Shown piece after piece: positions 1-7,194 of a DNA stretch of 10,861 nucleotides (its first letter is position 1; the number at the start of each line of letters is the position of its first letter). The translations under genes and the position numbers were made by a program. The notes beneath the pieces were generated by a model that was not told where the DNA came from, searched no databases, and was given only the letters and a program-made list of their open reading frames with translations. The stretch covers positions 1-10,861 of the IMG/VR virus record IMGVR_UViG_2713896896_000006. One strand, 5' to 3'. Origin of the DNA: a virus. Taxonomy: Duplodnaviria; Heunggongvirae; Uroviricota; Caudoviricetes.

Positions 1-276
1 TGGATAACCTACAAAGGAAAGCTACCGGGAAGAATTACTGGTTCTCTGAAGACGCCACCGACGGCATTGCGGTCAGAAAAAGATGATATTGAATCGCCCA
101 TTGAAAAACTGGAGGGCAGCGTCGCTGATCTGAATAAAAAATTGTCGGTGCTGATTCCTTCTGAAGATGAAAAAAAACGCCGCGATGAGCAGTTTGCGGC
201 GTTTTACGATTATTGCATTGAAGTTACTCGCAGGAATTTTGTGAAGATTTTTGAGGAGGGTAAATCTCTTCAGTAA
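1..276 (+). CDS. Hypothetical protein, 3' end of an ORF that is open from the window edge (5' partial)
   Basis: Frame 1 is open from position 1 to a TAA at 274-276; the product is hydrophilic and charged, and the antisense frame is not protein-like. No family recognised. Confidence 0.4.
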   Translation, partial: WITYKGKLPGRITGSLKTPPTALRSEKDDIESPIEKLEGSVADLNKKLSVLIPSEDEKKRRDEQFAAFYDYCIEVTRRNFVKIFEEGKSLQ

Positions 277-484
277 GCTTATTGGCGGACGCTGCAATTA
301 ATTCAGGAAGGTCCGCAAGGTCATCTGTCAGTGGATATGATGAAAAATCGGCGGCAGTTCTGTTAAGAAGCGCTTTAACTAATTCCTTTTCCTTCTCCGG
401 CAACAAGTTGATTAGAGCTACGACTGCTTGCCTGAGTGCGATTAAATCAGCAAAAGTTTGTTTTGGTAGATTTGTGTAATCCAT
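224..484 (-). CDS. Hypothetical protein (86 aa), convergent with and overlapping the previous ORF by about 53 bp
   Basis: ATG at 482-484 preceded by a GAGG Shine-Dalgarno about 5 nt upstream on the minus strand; the non-overlapping part is protein-like. No family recognised. Confidence 0.4.
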   Translation of the reverse strand: MDYTNLPKQTFADLIALRQAVVALINLLPEKEKELVKALLNRTAADFSSYPLTDDLADLPELIAASANKLTEEIYPPQKSSQNSCE

Positions 485-597
485 AGTCGCCTCTGTGTTT
501 ATCAGATTGACATCCTCATCCCGCCAGTGCCCATCACTGGTGAGGTAAGATTTAACATATCCGGGGATTTGAAGCCGATAAATCCTGATAAATATCC

Positions 598-1131
598 ATG
601 AACGTAAAAATCAAATACGGCCTGTCAGCTGCCGTTCTGGCGCTGATTGCTGCAGGCGCGTCTGCTCCTCAAATACTTGACCAGTTTCTGGATGAAAAAG
701 AAGGTAACCACACAACGGCATACCGTGATGGTTCTGGCATATGGACCATCTGTCGTGGTGCCACAATGGTGGATGGTAAGCCCGTCATACCGGGAATGAA
801 GCTGTCGAAGGAAAAATGCGACCAGGTTAACGCTATTGAACGTGATAAGGCGCTGGCATGGGTGGATCGCAATATAAAAGTACCACTGACCGAACCACAA
901 AAAGCAGGTATTGCGTCATTTTGTCCCTATAACATTGGCCCCGGTAAGTGTTTCCCGTCGACGTTTTATAAGCGGCTGAATGCCGGTGATCGTAAAGGCG
1001 CATGCGAGGCGATTCGCTGGTGGATTAAGGACGGTGGCCGTGATTGCCGCATTCGTTCAAATAACTGTTACGGTCAGGTTATTCGTCGTGACCAGGAGAG
1101 TGCGCTGGTGTGCTGGGGGATCGACAGATAA
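598..1131 (+). CDS. Phage endolysin, T4-lysozyme-like (GH24) with an N-terminal signal or signal-anchor-release segment
   Basis: N-terminus MNVKIKYGLSAAVLALIAAGASA is a K-rich then hydrophobic Ala/Gly-rich segment; the E-x8-D-x5-T catalytic spacing (E...YRDGSGIWT) matches lysozyme R of phage 21 and the RrrD-type family; it sits directly upstream of Rz/Rz1. Confidence 0.85.
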   Translation: MNVKIKYGLSAAVLALIAAGASAPQILDQFLDEKEGNHTTAYRDGSGIWTICRGATMVDGKPVIPGMKLSKEKCDQVNAIERDKALAWVDRNIKVPLTEPQKAGIASFCPYNIGPGKCFPSTFYKRLNAGDRKGACEAIRWWIKDGGRDCRIRSNNCYGQVIRRDQESALVCWGIDR

Positions 1132-1219
1132 GCAGAATATTTTGCTGAAAAATGCCGTTTGCTCACACAAGCGGATAACACGATATTCTGCAAACTGGCA
1201 AAAGGAAGTGAATAAAAGC

Positions 1220-1262
1220 AAAAACCCCGTTTGTTGGCAGCAAGCGGGGTTTTGTTTTCTGC
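1220..1262 (+). terminator. Intrinsic-terminator-like hairpin (13-bp stem with one G-U pair, 7-nt loop, then a T-rich tract)
   Basis: AAAACCCCGTTTG / TTGGCAG / CAAGCGGGGTTTT followed by GTTTTCT, about 90 bp after the endolysin stop. Confidence 0.5.
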
Positions 1263-1287
1263 CCATGGGAAAGCTAAAGGAGAAAAC

Positions 1288-1425
1288 GTGTTTGATTTTA
1301 GCAAACTGATTCTGGAGATTCGAGTGATGGCTGAAAAATTATCCACCTGGAAGTTCATCCTTATCTGGCTGGTGTTTGTGGTTATGGGCTCCGGTTATTT
1401 CATCGGTCAGATACGCAGGTGGTGA
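1288..1425 (+). CDS. Small single-pass membrane peptide (about 45 aa from GTG 1288, or 32 aa from ATG 1327) between endolysin and Rz
   Basis: AAAGGAG Shine-Dalgarno 5 nt upstream of GTG 1288; one hydrophobic helix (FILIWLVFVVMGSGYFIG); its TGA at 1423-1425 lies 1 nt before the Rz ATG, suggesting translational coupling. Confidence 0.4.
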   Translation: MFDFSKLILEIRVMAEKLSTWKFILIWLVFVVMGSGYFIGQIRRW

Positions 1426-1426
1426 A

Positions 1427-1891
1427 ATGAACCGGATTCTGTATGGCGTGATTATTGTCCTGCTGATGGTCTGTAGTGCTCTGTGGCTGGCAACAGATCA
1501 TTACCGCGATAACGCCATTACCTACAAAACACAACGCGATGACAATGCCAGAGAGCTGAAACTGGCAGAGGCGATCATTACTGATATGCAGGTGCGCCAG
1601 CGTGACGTTGCTGCACTCGATGCAAAATATTCAAAGGAATTAGCTGATGCGAAAGCTGAAAATGATGCTCTGCGTGATGATATTGCCGCTGGTCGTCGTC
1701 GGTTGCGCATCAGAGCAGTCTGTCCAGCCGTGCGTGAAGCCACCGCCTCCTCCGGCGTGGATGATGCAACCAGCCCCCGACTGGCAGACACCGCTGAACG
1801 GGATTATTTCACCCTCAGAGACCGATTGATGACGATGCAGAAGCAACTGGAAGGGGCACAGCTATACATTCGTGAGCAATGCCTCAGATAA
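1427..1891 (+). CDS. Rz: Rz i-spanin (inner-membrane spanin subunit)
   Basis: Near-colinear match to lambda Rz (HYRDNAITYK..., DVAALDAKY.KELADAKAENDALRDD.AAGRRRL, SPRLADTAERDYFTLR.RL.TMQKQLEG); N-terminal TM helix; start moved to ATG 1427 with AGGTGGTGA upstream rather than the track's 1376. Confidence 0.9.
   Translation: MNRILYGVIIVLLMVCSALWLATDHYRDNAITYKTQRDDNARELKLAEAIITDMQVRQRDVAALDAKYSKELADAKAENDALRDDIAAGRRRLRIRAVCPAVREATASSGVDDATSPRLADTAERDYFTLRDRLMTMQKQLEGAQLYIREQCLR
1647..1829 (+). CDS. Rz1: Rz1 o-spanin lipoprotein, embedded in the +1 frame of Rz
   Basis: Matches lambda Rz1 (KLKMMLCVM.LPLVVVGC, CVKPPPPPAW.MQP.PDWQTPLNGIISPSE); lipobox VVGC; proline-rich mature region; nested-gene arrangement typical of Rz/Rz1. 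Confidence 0.85.
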   Translation: MRKLKMMLCVMILPLVVVGCASEQSVQPCVKPPPPPAWMMQPAPDWQTPLNGIISPSETD

Positions 1892-2208
1892 AAACCGGCC
1901 AAGGATAATCCGCTGAAGATTTGCCGGCGGCGAAAGAGAGCCAAGGGTTCAGCCTACGCCATTACTCCTGTCGATGCAATGCATTCAATGGATGCTTGAT
2001 TTATTTCTGTGCGCTATATCGTCGCTGTCTCCTGCATAAACTATGACCGTAACTCGACGGGGAACCCCTTCTGCGTGAGTGTGCGGGGGGGAAGAAACAG
2101 GACACTCACACAGATTCTTGTGGGCACGATGCTATTCCTTTCTGGATTATCCCGATGCCATTCATGCAGGGCGCTGTATCAGACGTTCGTCATGGCTGTC
2201 AGGCTGAC

Positions 2209-2280
2209 GGGTCCTCCCGGTGGGGTGGCCTGCCACGGGGCGGGAGCGTCGCGGAAAAAGGCTAGTTTTTGAAATTTCAT
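2209..2280 (+). other. Lambda-like cos site, copy 1 (cosQ-like GGGTCCT at 2209-2215; predicted cosN 12-mer GGGCGGGAGCGT at 2238-2249)
   Basis: Aligns with the recalled lambda right-end/left-end junction ACGGGTCCTTTCCGGTGATCCGACAGGTTACG|GGGCGGCGACCT|CGCGGG; sits between the lysis cassette and the Nu1-like gene, as in lambdoid genomes. Lambda sequence is from memory. Confidence 0.65.
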
Positions 2281-2283
2281 TCG

Positions 2284-2370
2284 TCATCACCACTACTGTA
2301 ATGGATTGATATTACAGTGGTTTTATTTTTATGGTGTCGATTTTGATTATTTTTTGTTCACCACTAACAC
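2284..2370 (+). repeat. cosB-like region: three ACCACT(A/G) elements (two direct, one inverted) between cosN and the small terminase start
   Basis: CACCACTACTG at about 2288, inverted ATTACAGTGG at about 2311-2320, CACCACTAACA at about 2359; position matches the lambda cosB R-site block. Confidence 0.45.
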
Positions 2371-2423
2371 CGTTTGCCTAAAGTTGTTCGCAAGATGCAT
2401 GTTTAAAACATTCCGGAGCGGGT

Positions 2424-2918
2424 ATGGATCGAGAGTTAAAAAATCTGACGCTGAATATCAGTCAACTGGCGGCACTGTCAGGTGTACATCGCCAGACTGC
2501 TGCGGCAAGGCTGCAAAATCTACCCGTTGCAGGGGGGCATGAAAGCAACCTCAAGCTTTATCGGGTGGTTGATATTGTGTCGGCATTTCTGGCATTACCA
2601 CCGCCGGTTGCAGAAGGCGAAATGGACGCGCATGAGCGCAAAGCCTGGTATCAGTCTGAACGTGAGCGTCTTAAGTTCGAACAGGAAACGGCACAACTCA
2701 TTCCGGCCAGTGATGTCAGACGGGAGTTTGCCATCTGGGCAAAAGCGGTCGTGCAGGTGCTGGAGACATTACCGGATATTCTGGAACGTGACTGTGGTCT
2801 GCAGCCTGCCGCTGTGAGCCGTGTTCAGTCCATTATTGATGATCTGCGCGATCAGATAGCCCTGCGGGTGACCGAAGCAGGTGCGGATGATGAGGAGGAA
2901 TTACAGCAGGAGGAGTAA
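2424..2918 (+). CDS. Terminase small subunit, lambda Nu1-like
   Basis: N-terminal HTH-like segment (LNISQLAALSGVHRQTAAARL) and acidic C-terminus comparable to Nu1; GGAG Shine-Dalgarno; stop overlaps the large terminase start (TAATG). Confidence 0.75.
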   Translation: MDRELKNLTLNISQLAALSGVHRQTAAARLQNLPVAGGHESNLKLYRVVDIVSAFLALPPPVAEGEMDAHERKAWYQSERERLKFEQETAQLIPASDVRREFAIWAKAVVQVLETLPDILERDCGLQPAAVSRVQSIIDDLRDQIALRVTEAGADDEEELQQEE

Positions 2919-3913
2919 TGCTGAATCAGGAAACCGCAAAGGCAGCACGAACCGATTCAGGTTATATCCTTCGCGCACCGAGACGAATGCGGGTTGCTGA
3001 TGCCGTTGCTCAGTATATGCGGGTGCCCATGGGGGCAGGGAACTCAGTCCCGTGGGATCCGCTGGTGGCACCGTATGTTATTGAGCCGATGAACTGCCTG
3101 GCCTCGCGTGAATACGACGCAGTGATATTTGTTGGCCCGGCACGAACCGGCAAGACTATCGGCCTGATTGACGGCTGGGTGATTTACAACGTGATTTGCG
3201 ATCCTGCGGATATGCTGATCATTCAGATGACGGAGGAAAAAGCCCGCGAACACTCCAAAAAACGACTCGCCAGAACGTTTCGCGTCAGCCCGGAAGTGGT
3301 CAGTCGCCTGAGTCCGAACAAAAATGACAACAACGTTTATGACAGAACATTCCTTGCTGGCAACTACCTGAAAATCGGCTGGCCGTCAGTCAATATCATG
3401 TCCTCATCAGATTATAAATGCGTGGCGCTGACGGATTATGACCGTTTTCCGGAAGATATTGATGGCGAGGGGGATGCTTTCTCTCTTGCCTCAAAACGTA
3501 CCACCACATTTATGTCCAGCGGTATGACGCTGGTGGAGAGTTCCCCCGGCAGGGATGTGAAGGATGTGAAATGGCGACGGACTTCACCGCATGAGGCTCC
3601 ACCAACCACGGGGATACTGTCGCTCTATAACCGTGGCGATCGCCGTCGCTGGTACTGGCCCTGTCCACACTGTGGTGAGTTTTTTCAGCCCTGCGGCGAT
3701 GTGGTTGCTGGTTTCCGTGATATTGCCGATCCCGTGCTGGCAAGTGAGGCGGCTTATATTCAGTGTCCTTCCTGTTCAGGACGGATTATGCCTGAACAAA
3801 AACGTGAGCTGAACGGACGTGGGGTCTGGTTGCGGGATGGTGAATCCATCAATGCGGATGGCAGTCGTTATGGTGATCCCCGACGCTCACGTATTGCGTC
3901 ATTCTGGATGTAG
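2918..3913 (+). pseudogene. Terminase large subunit (lambda gpA family), truncated to the N-terminal 331 aa
   Basis: Walker A-like VGPARTGKT; CPHCGE motif (WYWPCPHCGEFF versus lambda FHVACPHCGEEQ); tracks lambda gpA up to about residue 330 (RIASFWM versus VTFHIWTAY) then hits a stop; the remaining ~300 codons are absent and the integrase gene begins 160 bp later. Confidence 0.8.
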
Positions 3914-4074
3914 GGTACATTTCTTACCTGTTTTTATGTTCTGGTGTCGTTTTGTAGTCTTTTCAATGAGTTGTGATTTTTTGTGTTTCCTCTCTTTACT
4001 TGATAATGAGTTAGTTTATCGCTTGTTATCGACTTGAAAGGACTACATGACGGACTAAAAAATGAGGGCGATAG

Positions 4075-5313
4075 ATGCCGGTAAAGCCATTAACCGTGAC
4101 TGAAGTTAAGGGAATGAAACCACGTGAAAAGGACTATGCCGTTTATGATGGATTCGGTTTATTGCTGAATGTGAGTAAAGCTGGTGGGAAAGTGTGGCGT
4201 TTCCGTTATAGCCATCCGATAACGAAGAAACGGCAGACATACACGATAGGGCGTTTTCCTGAATTCTCACTCGCGGAAGCACGGGAAATACGTGATGAAC
4301 TTCGGCGAATGATTGCACGTGGAGTTGATCCAGTGACAGAGAAGAAAAATCGTAAAATTGAGATGTCACTAAAAAATCTACAAACATTTGAAGCTGTTGC
4401 TAATGCATGGATCGCTTTTAAAAAGGGATCGGAATTGCGGAAACCTACGCTGTATAATATCGAATATGAAGTATACAAATATCTTGTTCCTTTCTTTGGT
4501 AAGTACAGCATAGAGAAAATTACAGCGCCAGTAGCTATTAATGCTCTGGATGCCGTATCCGATAAGAATGCGTTGCAAAAAAAATTAATATCAAGATTAA
4601 ATGAAATTATGAATTACGCTGTAAATTGTGGAGCATTGAAAACGAATCCATTACTTAAGATAAAAACTGCATTCACAGGAAAGAAAAATAAATCATTAGC
4701 TGCACTACCTATTGAAAGATTGCCTGAATTTCTGAGCTGGTGGGATAGTGTGCCTCATAAGTATCAAATAGCTCACAATGCACTTTTATTCCAGATATTG
4801 ACAATGGTCAGGCCAGGTGAGGCGATTAAAGCAGAGTGGTCCGAGATTGATTTTGATTCTGGCTTGTGGATTATCCCCGCGCATAAAATGAAATGCCATC
4901 GTGAACATGTTGTGCCTCTCTCATCACAGGCTATTAGAATCCTAAGAACAATGCAGAAAATAAAAAGAGGGCGTTATATATTTTTTTCCTCCAGAACAAA
5001 AGATGCTCCTATGGGAAAGAATACTATCAATACCCCAATTGCTGCCAGCAAGTTCAAAGGGATTGTAACGTTACACGGTTTTCGTTCGATGTGGAGTACG
5101 CTTTTAAATGAGGAGGGTTTTAACCCTGATGTTATTGAGGCTGCATTAGCACATAAAAGTGGTGATAAAATAAGAGATATTTATAATAGAACTACTTATT
5201 TAGAACAACGCAAAATTATGATGCAATGGGTAGGAGATTTTTTTGATGAGGCGAGAAAAGGGGTAATTAATAGATCCGGTGGTAAGAAAGGTTTGAGAAT
5301 AGTAAATGGTTGA
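4075..5313 (+). CDS. int: Tyrosine recombinase, P4-type integrase
   Basis: N-terminal arm-binding-like domain (KDYAVYDGFGLLLNVSKAGGKVWRFRY...TIGRFPEFSLAEAR) and C-terminal catalytic region (HGFRSMWST...H..R..YNRTTY); GAGGG Shine-Dalgarno. Confidence 0.9.
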   Translation: MPVKPLTVTEVKGMKPREKDYAVYDGFGLLLNVSKAGGKVWRFRYSHPITKKRQTYTIGRFPEFSLAEAREIRDELRRMIARGVDPVTEKKNRKIEMSLKNLQTFEAVANAWIAFKKGSELRKPTLYNIEYEVYKYLVPFFGKYSIEKITAPVAINALDAVSDKNALQKKLISRLNEIMNYAVNCGALKTNPLLKIKTAFTGKKNKSLAALPIERLPEFLSWWDSVPHKYQIAHNALLFQILTMVRPGEAIKAEWSEIDFDSGLWIIPAHKMKCHREHVVPLSSQAIRILRTMQKIKRGRYIFFSSRTKDAPMGKNTINTPIAASKFKGIVTLHGFRSMWSTLLNEEGFNPDVIEAALAHKSGDKIRDIYNRTTYLEQRKIMMQWVGDFFDEARKGVINRSGGKKGLRIVNG

Positions 5314-5325
5314 GGAGTTCAGCAA

Positions 5326-5529
5326 ATGAATACCAATGAAGATATTTTATTTACTAAAGACGTAATGAAAATTTTGCGCTATGGGGCAATGAGCGCATTC
5401 ATCAATTTCTGGAAAGATGAAAATAATGGTTTTCCTCAACCGTTCAGAATTGGGCGGCGGCATACCTGGCACCGTAGAGATGTAGAGGCATGGTTAGATA
5501 AACAACGAGAACAGGCCAATCCCCACTAA
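5326..5529 (+). CDS. alpA: AlpA-family DNA-binding regulator/excisionase-like protein
   Basis: 67 aa, directly downstream of int; AlpA-like HTH with a ...HRRDVEAWLDKQ tail; GAGGAG Shine-Dalgarno. Confidence 0.7.
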   Translation: MNTNEDILFTKDVMKILRYGAMSAFINFWKDENNGFPQPFRIGRRHTWHRRDVEAWLDKQREQANPH

Positions 5530-5543
5530 TAATATCTTTCATA

Positions 5544-5568
5544 CCCCGCACGCAATGCGGGGTTTTTT
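5544..5568 (+). terminator. Intrinsic terminator after alpA
   Basis: CCCCGCA / CGCAA / TGCGGGG followed by TTTTTT. Confidence 0.8.
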
Positions 5569-5587
5569 GTATGTGAGGTAAAAAACG

Positions 5588-6169
5588 ATGAATAAAAATA
5601 TTGCCGTGACGGGCAAGGGGTACGCTCGTTCAGTAAAAAAATTCTGCGATATTCGTGATCTTGTCGTTCTGCGCTTTGATGGCGTGGATGTTCGTGTGGT
5701 GTATCTGAACGGCGATCCGTGGTTTGTTGCAAAGGATGTTTGTGAAGCTCTGGAAATAAGCAACTCACGCGATGCTCTAAAAGCTCTGGATGTGGATGAG
5801 AAGAATACCGTCGCTTTAAGCTACGGTATTCGCGGAAATCCAAATCATAGCGTCGTTTCTGAATCTGGTTTTTACAAGCTGATCGCCAGAAGTCGCAAAG
5901 CTGTTACTCCTGGCACGTTCGCCCATCGTTTCAGTAACTGGGTATTCAGGAATGTGATACCAGGTATCAGAAAAACGGGGGCTTATGGTATCCCGTGGGG
6001 TGCATTACAGGATTTTTCCCGCCGTAAAGAGCAATATCAAATAAGTGCCAGCGAGAAGGGGAGGGAGCTACAGGCATGTAAGCGCAAAAAGCGTGAGCTG
6101 GAGGAAGAAGAAAAAAGGCTGATACGTGAATATCAGCCTGAGTTTTACTTTGGTGAGCGTATTCAGTAA
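5588..6169 (+). CDS. Bro-N domain protein (antirepressor-like)
   Basis: N-terminal Bro-N signature (FDGVDVRVVYLNGDPWFVAKDVCEALEI...VVSESGFYKLIARSRKA) with a charged, coiled-coil-like C-terminus; GAGGT Shine-Dalgarno. Confidence 0.7.
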   Translation: MNKNIAVTGKGYARSVKKFCDIRDLVVLRFDGVDVRVVYLNGDPWFVAKDVCEALEISNSRDALKALDVDEKNTVALSYGIRGNPNHSVVSESGFYKLIARSRKAVTPGTFAHRFSNWVFRNVIPGIRKTGAYGIPWGALQDFSRRKEQYQISASEKGRELQACKRKKRELEEEEKRLIREYQPEFYFGERIQ

Positions 6170-6344
6170 CCACGCGCATTGCTGATTATACGATACATCG
6201 TGTTAACCGGGAAGCTCCCCACCAGCAAGGCAAAATCTTCTGCTAAAAAATGACATATGAGCAGCCGTCCTGAAAGCATGAAGTTTTGCAGGAATAGATG
6301 CTGCAGTTCTTTATTTTATCAATTGGACTTTAGATAAAAGTAAA

Positions 6345-6380
6345 GGCGACCGAGGTGGTCGCCAGTTTTATTTTTATATT
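6345..6380. terminator. Bidirectional intrinsic terminator between the convergent Bro-N and membrane-protein genes
   Basis: GGCGACC / GAGGT / GGTCGCC flanked by an A-rich run upstream and a T-rich run downstream. Confidence 0.7.
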
Positions 6381-6385
6381 TTTCC

Positions 6386-6829
6386 CTATTGCATCAACAA
6401 TGAATGTCTTATCCACATTACGAGGGATGGAATAATTTTTATGTATCCGCCATATGCCCATATAATGGTGCCAAAAACAGTTAGTCCAACCCCGAGTACT
6501 TCAGCTTTTATTTCCTCTCTGACCTCAACTCGAGCTTTAGCTAAGTTTTCTTCTCGTATCTTTTGTGATTCTTCCGCAGACAATGGCGGGCCAGTTACGC
6601 CACTGCGTGAATTAATTTCAGCTTCGCGATTAGATAATTTTTTTAAAGTTGTGAACTTGATTGTATACAACAATCCAAAAACTGAAATAATTGCACCTGA
6701 GCTGGCGAATAGATTCATATCATTAAGATATTGGCCGAACAAAAAGCTTGCTCCACAAAAAACACATAATATGGCAATGGATGTTTTTGCACCGAGTATT
6801 TTTAGTAATATTGTTCTAAATCTCTTCAT
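6386..6829 (-). CDS. Hypothetical multi-pass membrane protein (147 aa)
   Basis: Three to four hydrophobic helices around a charged central loop (SAEESQKIREENLAKARVEVREEIKAE); AT-rich codon usage; second gene of a minus-strand pair after the ribbon-helix-helix gene. No family recognised. Confidence 0.6.
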   Translation of the reverse strand: MKRFRTILLKILGAKTSIAILCVFCGASFLFGQYLNDMNLFASSGAIISVFGLLYTIKFTTLKKLSNREAEINSRSGVTGPPLSAEESQKIREENLAKARVEVREEIKAEVLGVGLTVFGTIIWAYGGYIKIIPSLVMWIRHSLLMQ

Positions 6830-6860
6830 TGTTAATATATCCTATCATAGAAGTAGTAAT

Positions 6861-7055
6861 TCACCCCTTAGGTTCGATACCGCGCCGCTTTAGTTCGGAG
6901 CGCCCTAACTCTTTAAGCCAGTTAGCAAGGCTTACACCATCATTATTAGCCTCGCTATCAAACTGTTCTTTCAGTTCTGGAGCTATACGCATATGGAAAG
7001 GGGGAGCCTTTCCTGTCCCTTTGGGTTTTTTATCGCGTTTAATTATTGTTGACAT
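6861..7055 (-). CDS. Ribbon-helix-helix (Arc/CopG-like) DNA-binding protein, candidate island repressor
   Basis: Basic N-tail then a beta-strand/helix pattern (FHMRIAPELKEQFDSEANNDGVSLANWLKEL) typical of RHH proteins; AGGTG Shine-Dalgarno; start codon lies inside the palindromic operator region. Confidence 0.6.
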   Translation of the reverse strand: MSTIIKRDKKPKGTGKAPPFHMRIAPELKEQFDSEANNDGVSLANWLKELGRSELKRRGIEPKG

Positions 7056-7113
7056 GTGTACACCTATGGCGTTATGTTTTCATTCGATAGGTGTACACAT
7101 TAACACGTGTGCA
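7049..7113 (+). promoter_or_regulatory. Divergent switch region: rightward sigma70-like promoter overlapped by palindromic operators
   Basis: -35 TTGACA at 7049-7054, 18-bp spacer, -10-like TATGTT; self-complementary GTGTACAC at 7056-7063 and 7091-7098 (12-bp perfect inverted arms 19 bp apart) and ACACGTGT at 7103-7110. Confidence 0.55.
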
Positions 7114-7194
7114 TTTAATAACGCAACGCCCCGCAGTGCTGGAACACATGCAGGGCGTCTAACCACCAACGATAGCAACAGTATCGAGGTAGCT

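Follow-up and report, generated by a model that had tools for sequence, protein, structure and literature searches.

The window analysed here, a stretch of 10,861 nucleotides (nt) comprising positions 1 to 10,861 of the IMG/VR virus record IMGVR_UViG_2713896896_000006 (Caudoviricetes), contains a phage lysis cassette in which no holin gene is seen ahead of the endolysin gene R, and in which a hairpin and a 45-codon open reading frame (ORF), here called PEP45, lie between R and the spanin gene Rz. An initial annotation of this DNA suggested that the peptide might be a relocated or novel holin or antiholin, and that the endolysin might act without a canonical holin. What, then, is PEP45? Our best explanation, to which we give about an even chance, is that the hairpin, its leader and the ORF form a portable, antisense-gated membrane-peptide cassette within the otherwise canonical lysis operon of an Escherichia albertii prophage; in this explanation PEP45 is not a holin, an antiholin or a spanin-specific partner. 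As far as our searches show, the hairpin, the predicted antisense promoter and the pattern of genomic contexts are described here for the first time. The features of the proposed cassette, including the Shine-Dalgarno (SD) sequence of PEP45, are as follows.

1212-1258, no strand assigned: bidirectional intrinsic-terminator-like hairpin (A-tract 1212-1224, stem-loop 1221-1253, U-tract 1250-1258)
1254-1287, minus strand: leader, and stem-loop 1 (SL1) of the predicted antisense RNA; SD AAGGAG on the plus strand, anti-SD CUCCUU on the minus strand
1288-1425, plus strand: PEP45, 45 codons, GTG start, TGA stop; full-length match to phrog_6632 (E=3e-26)
1295-1303, minus strand: predicted extended -10, TGCTAAAAT, inside PEP45 codons 3-6
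1314-1329, plus strand: possible internal start (GGAG 1314-1317, 9 nt, ATG of Met14 at 1327-1329)
1318-1323, minus strand: predicted -35-like hexamer TCGAAT in codons 11-12, 17 nt upstream of the -10

PEP45 encodes a conserved small membrane protein

The SD sequence AAGGAG of PEP45 (1277-1282) lies 5 nt before the GTG. The gene is kept in homologous cassettes: 97 loci contain 13 unique PEP45 DNAs, all with the GTG and the TGA, and with zero indels and zero internal stops. Compared with the copies of Escherichia fergusonii, pS is 0.53-0.68 and pN 0.09-0.15 (pN/pS 0.13-0.26), with 15-19 synonymous (Sd) and 9-15 nonsynonymous (Nd) differences over ∼28 synonymous (S) and ∼104 nonsynonymous (N) sites, N being nearly four times S. 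On this sequence comparison PEP45 is under purifying selection at the amino-acid level, and the substitutions in family alignments are conservative. The initial annotation had recognized a 45-amino-acid (aa) ORF with a single transmembrane (TM) helix and an ideal SD, which is upheld by the SD itself, the phrog_6632 match and the purifying selection, and we are highly confident that PEP45 is a real membrane-protein gene.

An exhaustive profile search condenses the family to 37 representatives at 50% identity, with the consensus x-D-[FI]-S-K-[LI]-I-[RK]-E-[LI]-R-x-M-x-[EK]-[KQR]-L-[PS]-x-W-[KR]-F, after which comes a hydrophobic helix. Since this N-terminal motif is the best-kept part of the family, the true start is taken to be GTG 1288 and not ATG 1327. 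The motif and a two-helix architecture are kept across genera down to 31-47% identity. The C-terminus reads RRW in the window copy and RWW in most copies; RWW was considered as a universal C-terminus and rejected, many distant family members ending otherwise.

The AlphaFold model of PEP45 (mean pLDDT, the predicted local distance difference test, 81.9) contains helices at residues 4-17 and 20-44 with a break between them, and PEP45 is accordingly modelled as a small protein of the inner membrane in which a break separates an amphipathic helix (∼4-17) from one TM helix (∼20-44). Because basic residues concentrate before the TM helix (five before it, one or two after it), the predicted topology is N-in and tail-anchored, which would place the amphipathic helix in the cytoplasm. 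Met14 is near-invariant across the family, codon 10 is GAG in 17 of 18 copies, and some gene callers pick the Met14 start (P0020-P0022). Speculatively, this internal start could yield a 32-aa form lacking the amphipathic helix, in a dual-start arrangement.

No match of PEP45 to holin, antiholin, releasin or defence families was found in Pfam, NCBIfam, the PHROG lysis category or PADLOC; PF10805 (DUF2730) is absent from its matches at E<=0.1, and phrog_6632 carries no functional annotation. In some public records the 45-aa protein is misnamed 'HAD family hydrolase' (WP_192825475.1; contig L004, 2690-2827) or 'dimethyl sulfoxide reductase subunit B, partial' (P0029); RefSeq also lists it as 'hypothetical'. 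These records show how small ORFs acquire wrong names.

Coupling of PEP45 to Rz

The TGA of PEP45 ends at 1425 and is followed by one base (1426) and the Rz ATG at 1427, exactly as the initial annotation had it. The same 1-nt gap between the PEP45 stop and the ATG of the inner-membrane spanin (i-spanin) is present in 92 of 92 scorable loci, and in the case of the phrog_1026 spanin a start/stop overlap takes its place. The sole SD-like sequence for Rz is AGGTGGTGA, which lies within the last PEP45 codons. Translation of Rz is likely to be coupled to that of PEP45.

Coupling raises the possibility that the ORF is a mere translational leader, which loads ribosomes for Rz after the insert broke the coupling between R and Rz, and that its peptide is functionless, or that it is a chance frame. 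The perfect SD, the 1-nt stop-start junction and the position of the SD-like motif of Rz are as expected of such a leader, and R overlaps Rz in cassettes without the peptide. It is nevertheless extremely improbable in view of the purifying selection on amino acids, the retention of the two-helix architecture and N-terminal motif across genera, and the intact copies in baseplate operons, where an SD of its own, 15 nt away, serves the downstream gene.

A terminator-like hairpin and a predicted antisense RNA

The initial annotation had also pointed out a strong hairpin between the endolysin and Rz genes, and this is borne out at 1221-1253. It has a GC core (1225-1229/1245-1249) with an A-tract 5' and a U-tract 3', which gives U-runs on both strands (UUUUUGCUUUUAU on the minus strand). 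The 96-nt segment bearing it folds with -32.5 kcal/mol (z = -4.3), and none of 200 shuffles was equally stable. Of the 9 pairs in the terminator stem, 4 carry changes on both sides; the paired share of cells is 95%. The element at 1212-1258 thus has the predicted GC-rich stem-loop, the U-run and the conserved structure of an intrinsic terminator. A terminator-like hairpin is present 35-45 nt 5' of the start codon in every intact copy of PEP45, from Escherichia to Pseudomonas and Azoarcus.

The leader between hairpin and PEP45 start is ∼35 nt long, and a promoter scan found no plus-strand promoter-like site between the hairpin and the start codon. A plus-strand small RNA (sRNA) located in 1132-1260 and ending at the hairpin was considered and rejected; its sole candidate hexamers (TTGCTC-17 nt-GATATT) score 8/12 and are not conserved in E. 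coli copies. Sequestration of the SD by the U-tract in the sense mRNA appears in the fold of the 96-nt segment, but plus-strand RNAalifold lends it no support. When positions 1-2600 were scanned against Rfam at E<=1, nothing but a chance fragment of a long noncoding RNA was returned.

On the minus strand, the reverse complement of codons 3-6 (GAT TTT AGC AAA) is TTTGCTAAAATC, an extended -10 element (TGnTAAAAT). Every one of the 20 diverged copies has TGnTA(A/T)AAT at this position, the GC-rich one of Pseudomonas too; in the Azoarcus copy the residues are changed to N-F-I-K, and the DNA motif is still TGATAAAAT. About 1.1 chance occurrences of the -10 motif are expected in the whole window, both strands counted. 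At a fixed distance of 17 nt, TCGAAT, TCGCAA, TCGTAT or TCGCAC is found in 19 of 20 copies (CATCAA in Azoarcus), and across copies the hairpin stands at a roughly constant distance from the antisense -10. A survey of synonymous sites in 19 unique N-terminal DNAs shows which codons are frozen: codon 3 is GAT in 18/18, codon 4 TTT in 17/17, codon 5 AGC in 18/18 (there being six Ser codons) and codon 12 the rare CGA in 18/18. Codons 7, 8, 9, 13 and 18-24 vary, each with two to five synonymous codons (Arg9, for example, is CGG, AGG or CGC).

RNAalifold analysis of the 19-sequence minus-strand alignment gives two stems, SL1 over the anti-SD and the terminator. Across both stems, 9 of 18 pairs have double-sided changes and 92.9% of cells are paired; the observed covariation was reached by none of 500 shuffles, and the signal collapses once the partners are slid. 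In SL1, 3 of the 5 pairs of helix 3 have double-sided changes, and the window's own SL1 is weaker, with 6 of 9 pairs. The predicted antisense RNA would be ∼70-80 nt long, starting near the complement of the GTG, crossing the anti-SD CUCCUU and ending at the hairpin. We lean slightly towards the existence of this RNA. No report of it was found in the literature and it has no Rfam match. The Pas sRNAs of pathogenic E. coli prophages were rejected as candidates, as they map to a different site, between esterase and holin; Tree et al. 2014 do not mention the lysis genes.

Distribution and portability of the unit

The PEP45 gene is present in 871 of 5426 complete E. coli genomes (at least 80% coverage of a 361-nt query). 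It occurs, mostly unannotated, in the phages H-19B, CP-1639 and TL-2011c and in many Shiga toxin (Stx) phages of types Stx1a, Stx2a and Stx2c; it is likewise unannotated in SPN3UB. A species-level scan and a phage search found further copies in Salmonella, Citrobacter, Yersinia, Pantoea, Brenneria, Sodalis, Symbiopectobacterium, Providencia, Serratia, Dryocola and Trabulsiella, in a Pseudomonas phage and in an Azoarcus metagenome-assembled genome. The homologue of the Pseudomonas phage is a full-length phrog_6632 member (E=4e-23). For locus retrieval a narrower alignment was used, the broad 22-sequence alignment being too diverse.

The settings of these copies differ, and every one of them is a late operon. 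In the first, the slot between endolysin and i-spanin, the spanin is Rz, DUF2514 or, in Citrobacter (L115), phrog_1026/1275. The E. fergusonii copy (73% identity) belongs here and stands in an unrelated cassette with a PF16931 holin (holin_8), a GH19 endolysin and a DUF2514 i-spanin that has no similarity to Rz; DNA homology between it and the window begins at the hairpin and ends just past the spanin ATG. In the second, the unit is found between a gpV-like baseplate spike gene and a baseplate wedge or J gene (SEN34, Pantoea and Yersinia, with Serratia and Dryocola assigned by sequence reading). The others are a site between podovirus-type internal virion proteins (Azoarcus), one after a large polyvalent protein (Brenneria) and a cluster of small ORFs in the tail region (the Pseudomonas phage). 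Because the contexts are so varied, PEP45 is not bound to a given holin, endolysin or spanin, or even to lysis genes. From these comparisons it is very likely that the hairpin, leader and ORF travel together as a portable cassette, and the hairpin appears to be its 5' boundary. Outside lysis operons, the module adjoins envelope-penetrating virion parts, namely the gpV spike/wedge or internal virion proteins that include an SLT-domain protein (Azoarcus L112; L110/L101/L107).

A strict link to spanins was considered and rejected: the 92 Escherichia-type loci all fit it, but the SEN34, Pantoea, Yersinia, Azoarcus and Pseudomonas contexts contradict it. A related proposal is that PEP45 is a spanin-dedicated partner (an assembly factor, chaperone or brake of the i-spanin) made one-to-one with it by coupling. 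The invariable junction described above, which holds for Rz, for DUF2514 and as an overlap for the phrog_1026 spanin, agrees with this, as does the presence in the same position of other small TM ORFs ending in [RK]WW-stop, in phage PhiR5_1 and E. fergusonii. We nonetheless consider such a partner improbable: the three i-spanin families lack mutual sequence similarity, so that specific recognition of their TM domains is unlikely, intact copies with hairpin and predicted promoter occur in baseplate and internal-virion-protein operons with no spanin adjoining, and the peptide is missing from most phages that have spanins (PEP45 is in 49 phage records, against 484 that match this R-Rz region).

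The portability of the unit and its location at moron-like sites in tail and lysis operons, together with its retention in a defective prophage with a disrupted terminase, would also suit a moron-type gene that is expressed from the prophage and benefits the lysogen through superinfection exclusion or another membrane function. Such a gene is at odds with the lack of a sense promoter, with a terminator immediately upstream, ∼35 nt from the start codon, with a conserved predicted antisense promoter that points to repression in the lysogen, and with the lack of matches to defence families; it is quite improbable.

The R-Rz junction is a hot spot at which small hydrophobic ORFs gather. In phage PhiR5_1 (L001) another insert occupies the same break-points (5485-6623), consisting of an ANT/KilAC gene and four tandem single-TM small ORFs. 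One of these is a PEP45 paralogue truncated at the N-terminus (MKMIKMDWKFLLVWLIPFLWVVAQLITAIKG), and the last one (...AIAVLVWAIRWW*) stops 1 nt before the Rz ATG. In E. fergusonii L094-L097 (∼2755-2907), a second small TM ORF (MKESGNKTNLNIGGKMSEKGADRAGVILAVAALISALALLVWAASWVKWW, phrog_12997) lies just 5' of the PEP45 cassette and closes with the same ...TGGTGGTGA-T-ATG junction, after which comes an apparent 12-nt remnant of a spanin 5' end (MSRV...). In Dryocola L116, a related N-terminus is joined to a truncated PEP45.

The lysis genes and their holin

The genes and other features flanking the cassette, with their positions in the window, are as follows; R is an endolysin of the signal-anchor-release (SAR) type.

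1-276, plus strand: DUF1327/YdfR-family gene, last 91 codons, truncated by the left edge (phrog_2091 positions 93-183 of 183, E=1.7e-50)
224-484, minus strand: 86-aa ORF, full-length match to phrog_2572 (E=4.4e-53)
598-1131, plus strand: endolysin R, SAR-type, 177 aa (PF00959, E=1.2e-24); N-terminus MNVKIKYGLSAAVLALIAAGASA, catalytic motif E35-x8-D44-x5-T50
1132-1211, no strand assigned: spacer from the R stop to the cassette, conserved among E. coli/E. albertii copies only
1427-1891, plus strand: Rz i-spanin, 154 aa (PF03245, E=1.9e-49; phrog_13)
1647-1829, plus strand: Rz1, a lipoprotein and outer-membrane spanin (o-spanin), embedded within Rz in the +1 frame (PF06085, E=1e-18)
2424-2918: DUF1441 small terminase, followed by the GpA large terminase

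A 71-aa PF04971 holin is encoded upstream in all eight contigs that encode exactly this endolysin, in the order holin, DUF1327, reverse ORF, endolysin, PEP45, Rz or Rz1 (in two of the eight, the gene caller listed Rz1 alone, without Rz). Six of the eight align across window position 1, at 98.7-99.8% identity. Contig L012 corresponds to window 1-6167 at 99.5%, with window position 1 at its position 5404, and its holin gene (4908-5123) is found 281-496 nt to the left of window position 1. The upstream holin is an S21-type pinholin with the dual-start motif MKSMDK. Judging from these contigs, the holin is almost certainly located simply upstream of the window, and the 'missing holin' is an artefact of the window edge. 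The lysis genes read as a canonical phage-21-type set, with the pinholin S off-window, the SAR endolysin R and the spanins Rz/Rz1. Pinholin/SAR pairs are the norm in Stx phages (PMC8136144).

The initial statement that no holin precedes the endolysin is therefore true inside the window only, near-identical contigs carrying the PF04971 holin upstream. The 'hydrophilic convergent ORFs' that it described there do exist, but are the 3' end of the DUF1327/YdfR gene and the phrog_2572 ORF, which by gene order constitute an insert separating S from R, as in the Qin prophage of E. coli K-12 (essQ-ydfR-rrrQ). In E. coli relatives S either adjoins R or is arranged as S-YdfR-(reverse ORF)-R, and in contigs L006-L008 and L011 a full-length PF07041 gene (183 aa) lies directly 3' of the PF04971 holin. 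The counterpart of the 86-aa reverse ORF is named 'DUF1823 containing protein' in phage PhiR5_1.

Endolysin R aligns with phage 21 R (PDB 3HDE) from residue 12, and likewise with RrrD (4ZPU), in both cases including the N-terminal membrane segment, which in R consists of basic residues followed by a weakly hydrophobic Gly/Ala/Ser-rich segment. By this alignment R is an ordinary SAR endolysin of the R21 type, with predicted release from the membrane. SAR endolysins are exported by Sec and are still triggered by pinholins. The suggestion that the endolysin is independent of a canonical holin thus fails, R being of the ordinary SAR type and an S21-type pinholin lying upstream in near-identical genomes. 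The exact R and PEP45 sequences are carried in public records as Escherichia albertii (R as lysozyme). Downstream, Rz and Rz1 form a two-component spanin, an i-spanin (PF03245) with an embedded +1-frame lipoprotein (PF06085) whose lipobox reads ...LVVVGC in translation.

Because a canonical pinholin sits just upstream of the window, no relocated holin is needed. In favour of PEP45 as a relocated or novel holin or antiholin, the peptide is hydrophobic and single-pass, belongs to a lysis cassette and is co-expressed late, a GxxxG-like motif (G36-x3-G40) is kept in enteric copies, and the invariant internal Met14 with its upstream GGAG recalls the dual starts of holins and antiholins. Yet the pinholin upstream is complete, with a dual start of its own, and PEP45 has one TM helix and no holin-family match, where a holin would have two TM domains or another recognized topology and such a match; nor is it the sole candidate for a membrane lesion. 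PEP45 also accompanies unrelated types of holin and endolysin and occurs in operons without lysis genes, and in many lambdoid cassettes, that of K-12 Qin among them, R overlaps Rz and lysis proceeds without the peptide. A holin or antiholin role is very improbable, and relocation of the holin is effectively excluded. Of the two circumstances that had been named as telling against that proposal, a holin just upstream is found, but the peptide is conserved, not unconserved.

A lysis accessory that acts, at the inner membrane, on either the pinholin or the SAR endolysin and tunes triggering or the SAR domain's release has precedents. Lcc6 of LambdaSo (65 aa) is a small TM accessory essential for pinholin/SAR lysis (bioRxiv 10.1101/2024.01.23.576932), and the releasin gp25 of Mu (99 aa, N-out/C-in, with a 73-aa cytoplasmic domain) is a small TM accessory essential for lysis (PMC9239132). 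Endolysin R has N-terminal lysines (K4, K6), the type of feature that gives releasin dependence in Mu (PMC9239132), and PEP45, as modelled, similarly comprises a cytoplasmic segment and a TM domain. Releasins are however characterized by DUF2730 and by an N-terminal TM domain with a cytoplasmic C-domain; PEP45 has no DUF2730 match, its TM helix is C-terminal, and the orientation of gp25 is opposite to the one predicted for it. PEP45 is also found beside GH19 and other endolysins and in non-lysis operons. We regard an accessory of this kind as rather improbable.

Between endolysin R and PEP45 there is a gap of 156 nt, inside which the hairpin lies. In the alignment with E. fergusonii copies, homology of the spacer region begins only at ∼1212-1215, and the spacer itself (1132-1211) contains neither an Rfam match nor a promoter-like site. 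Downstream of Rz follow ∼530 nt of noncoding DNA (1892-2423), up to the small terminase gene, with a GC-rich part at ∼2040-2270, two terminator-like hairpins (1981-1995 and 2292-2321) and a promoter-like site (2306-2335). The matching slot holds bor, DUF1398 or HNH genes in relatives, and may include cos. The GpA large-terminase gene (2918-3913) ends after the ATPase domain (331 aa, compared with ∼700 in relatives), and from ∼3916 the window departs from most relatives into an integrase-bearing element, an insertion shared by contig L012. Its genes include Int (4075-5313), Bro-N (5588-6169), DUF4222 (8006-8347), AAA_25 (8344-9759) and SSB (10209-10631). The element (3914-10861) looks like a satellite or island integrated into terL of the prophage, and since it seems to be integrated there, a defective prophage is probable. 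Contigs L006-L013, of the same prophage family, have a type I toxin gene, hok/gef (PF01848), 5' of DUF968-RusA-Q (∼690-1470, upstream of the region covered by the window); these prophages would hold two small membrane-peptide modules, if PEP45 is toxin-like.

Proposed mechanism

With no sense promoter of its own, the cassette would yield PEP45 only from late transcripts that extend through the hairpin. PEP45, and the coupled translation of Rz, would be silenced in the lysogen by the terminator together with the antisense RNA. The antisense RNA would be constitutive, covering the SD and start codon of PEP45 until late transcripts outnumber it, and strong Q-antiterminated late transcription would pass the terminator and outrun the antisense RNA. 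In the most speculative step, the peptide would act as a type I toxin or HokW-like membrane perturbant, aiding late envelope events. A membrane-perturbing or lysis-assisting function of PEP45 is possible, though short of probable.

A broader proposal, tentative and on balance unlikely, is that the unit represents an unrecognized class of self-contained, antisense-RNA-gated membrane-peptide cassettes that hitch-hike in late operons of Gamma- and Betaproteobacteria. The bidirectional terminator would then serve as both insulator and antisense terminator, spanin translation would be under RNA control where a spanin adjoins, and the peptide would be a general helper of membrane breaching. This last role is hinted at because the unit recurs near spanins, the baseplate spike/wedge and internal virion proteins; adjacency to envelope-crossing machinery may merely reflect the boundaries of late-operon genes.

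Several points weigh against the antisense-gated cassette. The -35-like hexamer of the window matches the consensus at 3 of 6 positions, and a generic promoter scan made no call at this minus-strand site. Selection for an unstructured translation start could account in part for the frozen AT-rich codons 3-5, and an internal SD could explain GAG10. The better pairing of SL1 on the minus-strand RNA (90.6% of cells against 80.0% on the plus strand, with 24 against 6 G-U wobbles) speaks for the antisense RNA, but this test of strand asymmetry is biased by the derivation of the structure on the minus strand and owes most of the asymmetry to one E. coli clade. No transcript, protein or phenotype of PEP45 was found in the literature, the supplements of Sakai ribosome profiling or an Enterobacteriaceae microproteome preprint. 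A terminator is awkward within baseplate operons, which are not known for antitermination, and classical type I toxins have their own promoter, which the cassette lacks. Finally, as the unit adjoins spanins of three families so strictly, its role may yet be related to spanins.

Significance and comparison with known systems

The lysis cassette itself is textbook, no new holin model being needed, and the case shows that a window edge can make a cassette look 'holin-less'. PEP45 is present, mostly unannotated, in about one in six complete E. coli genomes and in the lysis operons of H-19B and other Stx1a, Stx2a and Stx2c phages, and lysis timing in Stx phages governs the release of both Shiga toxin and phage. 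If the antisense RNA and the coupling are true, spanin synthesis in these phages would be gated by an overlooked RNA switch, and PEP45 would be new either as an accessory factor in phage egress or as a family of type-I-toxin-like proteins. If the peptide does help in membrane breaching, H-19B-type Stx phages would have a further regulated lysis component.

Among known lysis cassettes, that of phage 21 and the Stx phages shares with the window the PF04971 dual-start holin family, the SAR endolysin family (3HDE) and Rz/Rz1. The K-12 Qin cassette (essQ-ydfR-rrrQ-rzpQ) has the same DUF1327/YdfR wedge, but its rrrQ overlaps rzpQ and it has no peptide, for which reasons K-12 was rejected as a model for PEP45. 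In the window a 295-nt insert, comprising the hairpin and the 45-aa gene, parts R from Rz. We take R to overlap Rz also in phage 21, lambda and DLP12.

With type I toxin-antitoxin systems the cassette shares a hydrophobic single-pass peptide of less than 60 aa (45 aa, TM helix 20-44); a cis-antisense RNA, if made as predicted, would be a further likeness, lying over the ribosome-binding site (RBS) and start codon, with a promoter within the 5' end of the ORF and its own terminator. The layout of symE/SymR resembles the predicted arrangement, as does that of P22 ant/sar. Unlike type I toxins, PEP45 lacks a sense promoter of its own, relying on late-operon read-through, and is translationally coupled to a downstream gene; in Pfam and NCBIfam it has no sequence similarity to Hok, Ldr, Ibs, TisB, ZorO or other toxin families. 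The hokW-sokW system of Stx prophage Sp5 speeds growth arrest and phage release (PMC8621323), and is thereby a precedent for a type I module of a Stx prophage that favours phage release.

Mu gp25 and LambdaSo Lcc6 are likewise small inner-membrane accessory proteins, encoded in or near the lysis genes of SAR-endolysin phages. In contrast to gp25, PEP45 has 45 aa, is predicted to be N-in, lacks DUF2730 and also occurs away from lysis genes.

The sar RNA of P22, which acts on ant, and the OOP RNA of lambda, which acts on cII, are phage antisense RNAs of ∼70 nt with their own terminator, complementary to the RBS of a convergently transcribed gene and serving temporal control. The target here, by contrast, would be a tiny membrane peptide of a late operon and not a regulator, and the unit is mobile among unrelated phages. 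It is the terminator-first layout, the lack of a sense promoter, the mobility among late operons and the coupling to spanins that make PEP45 unusual.

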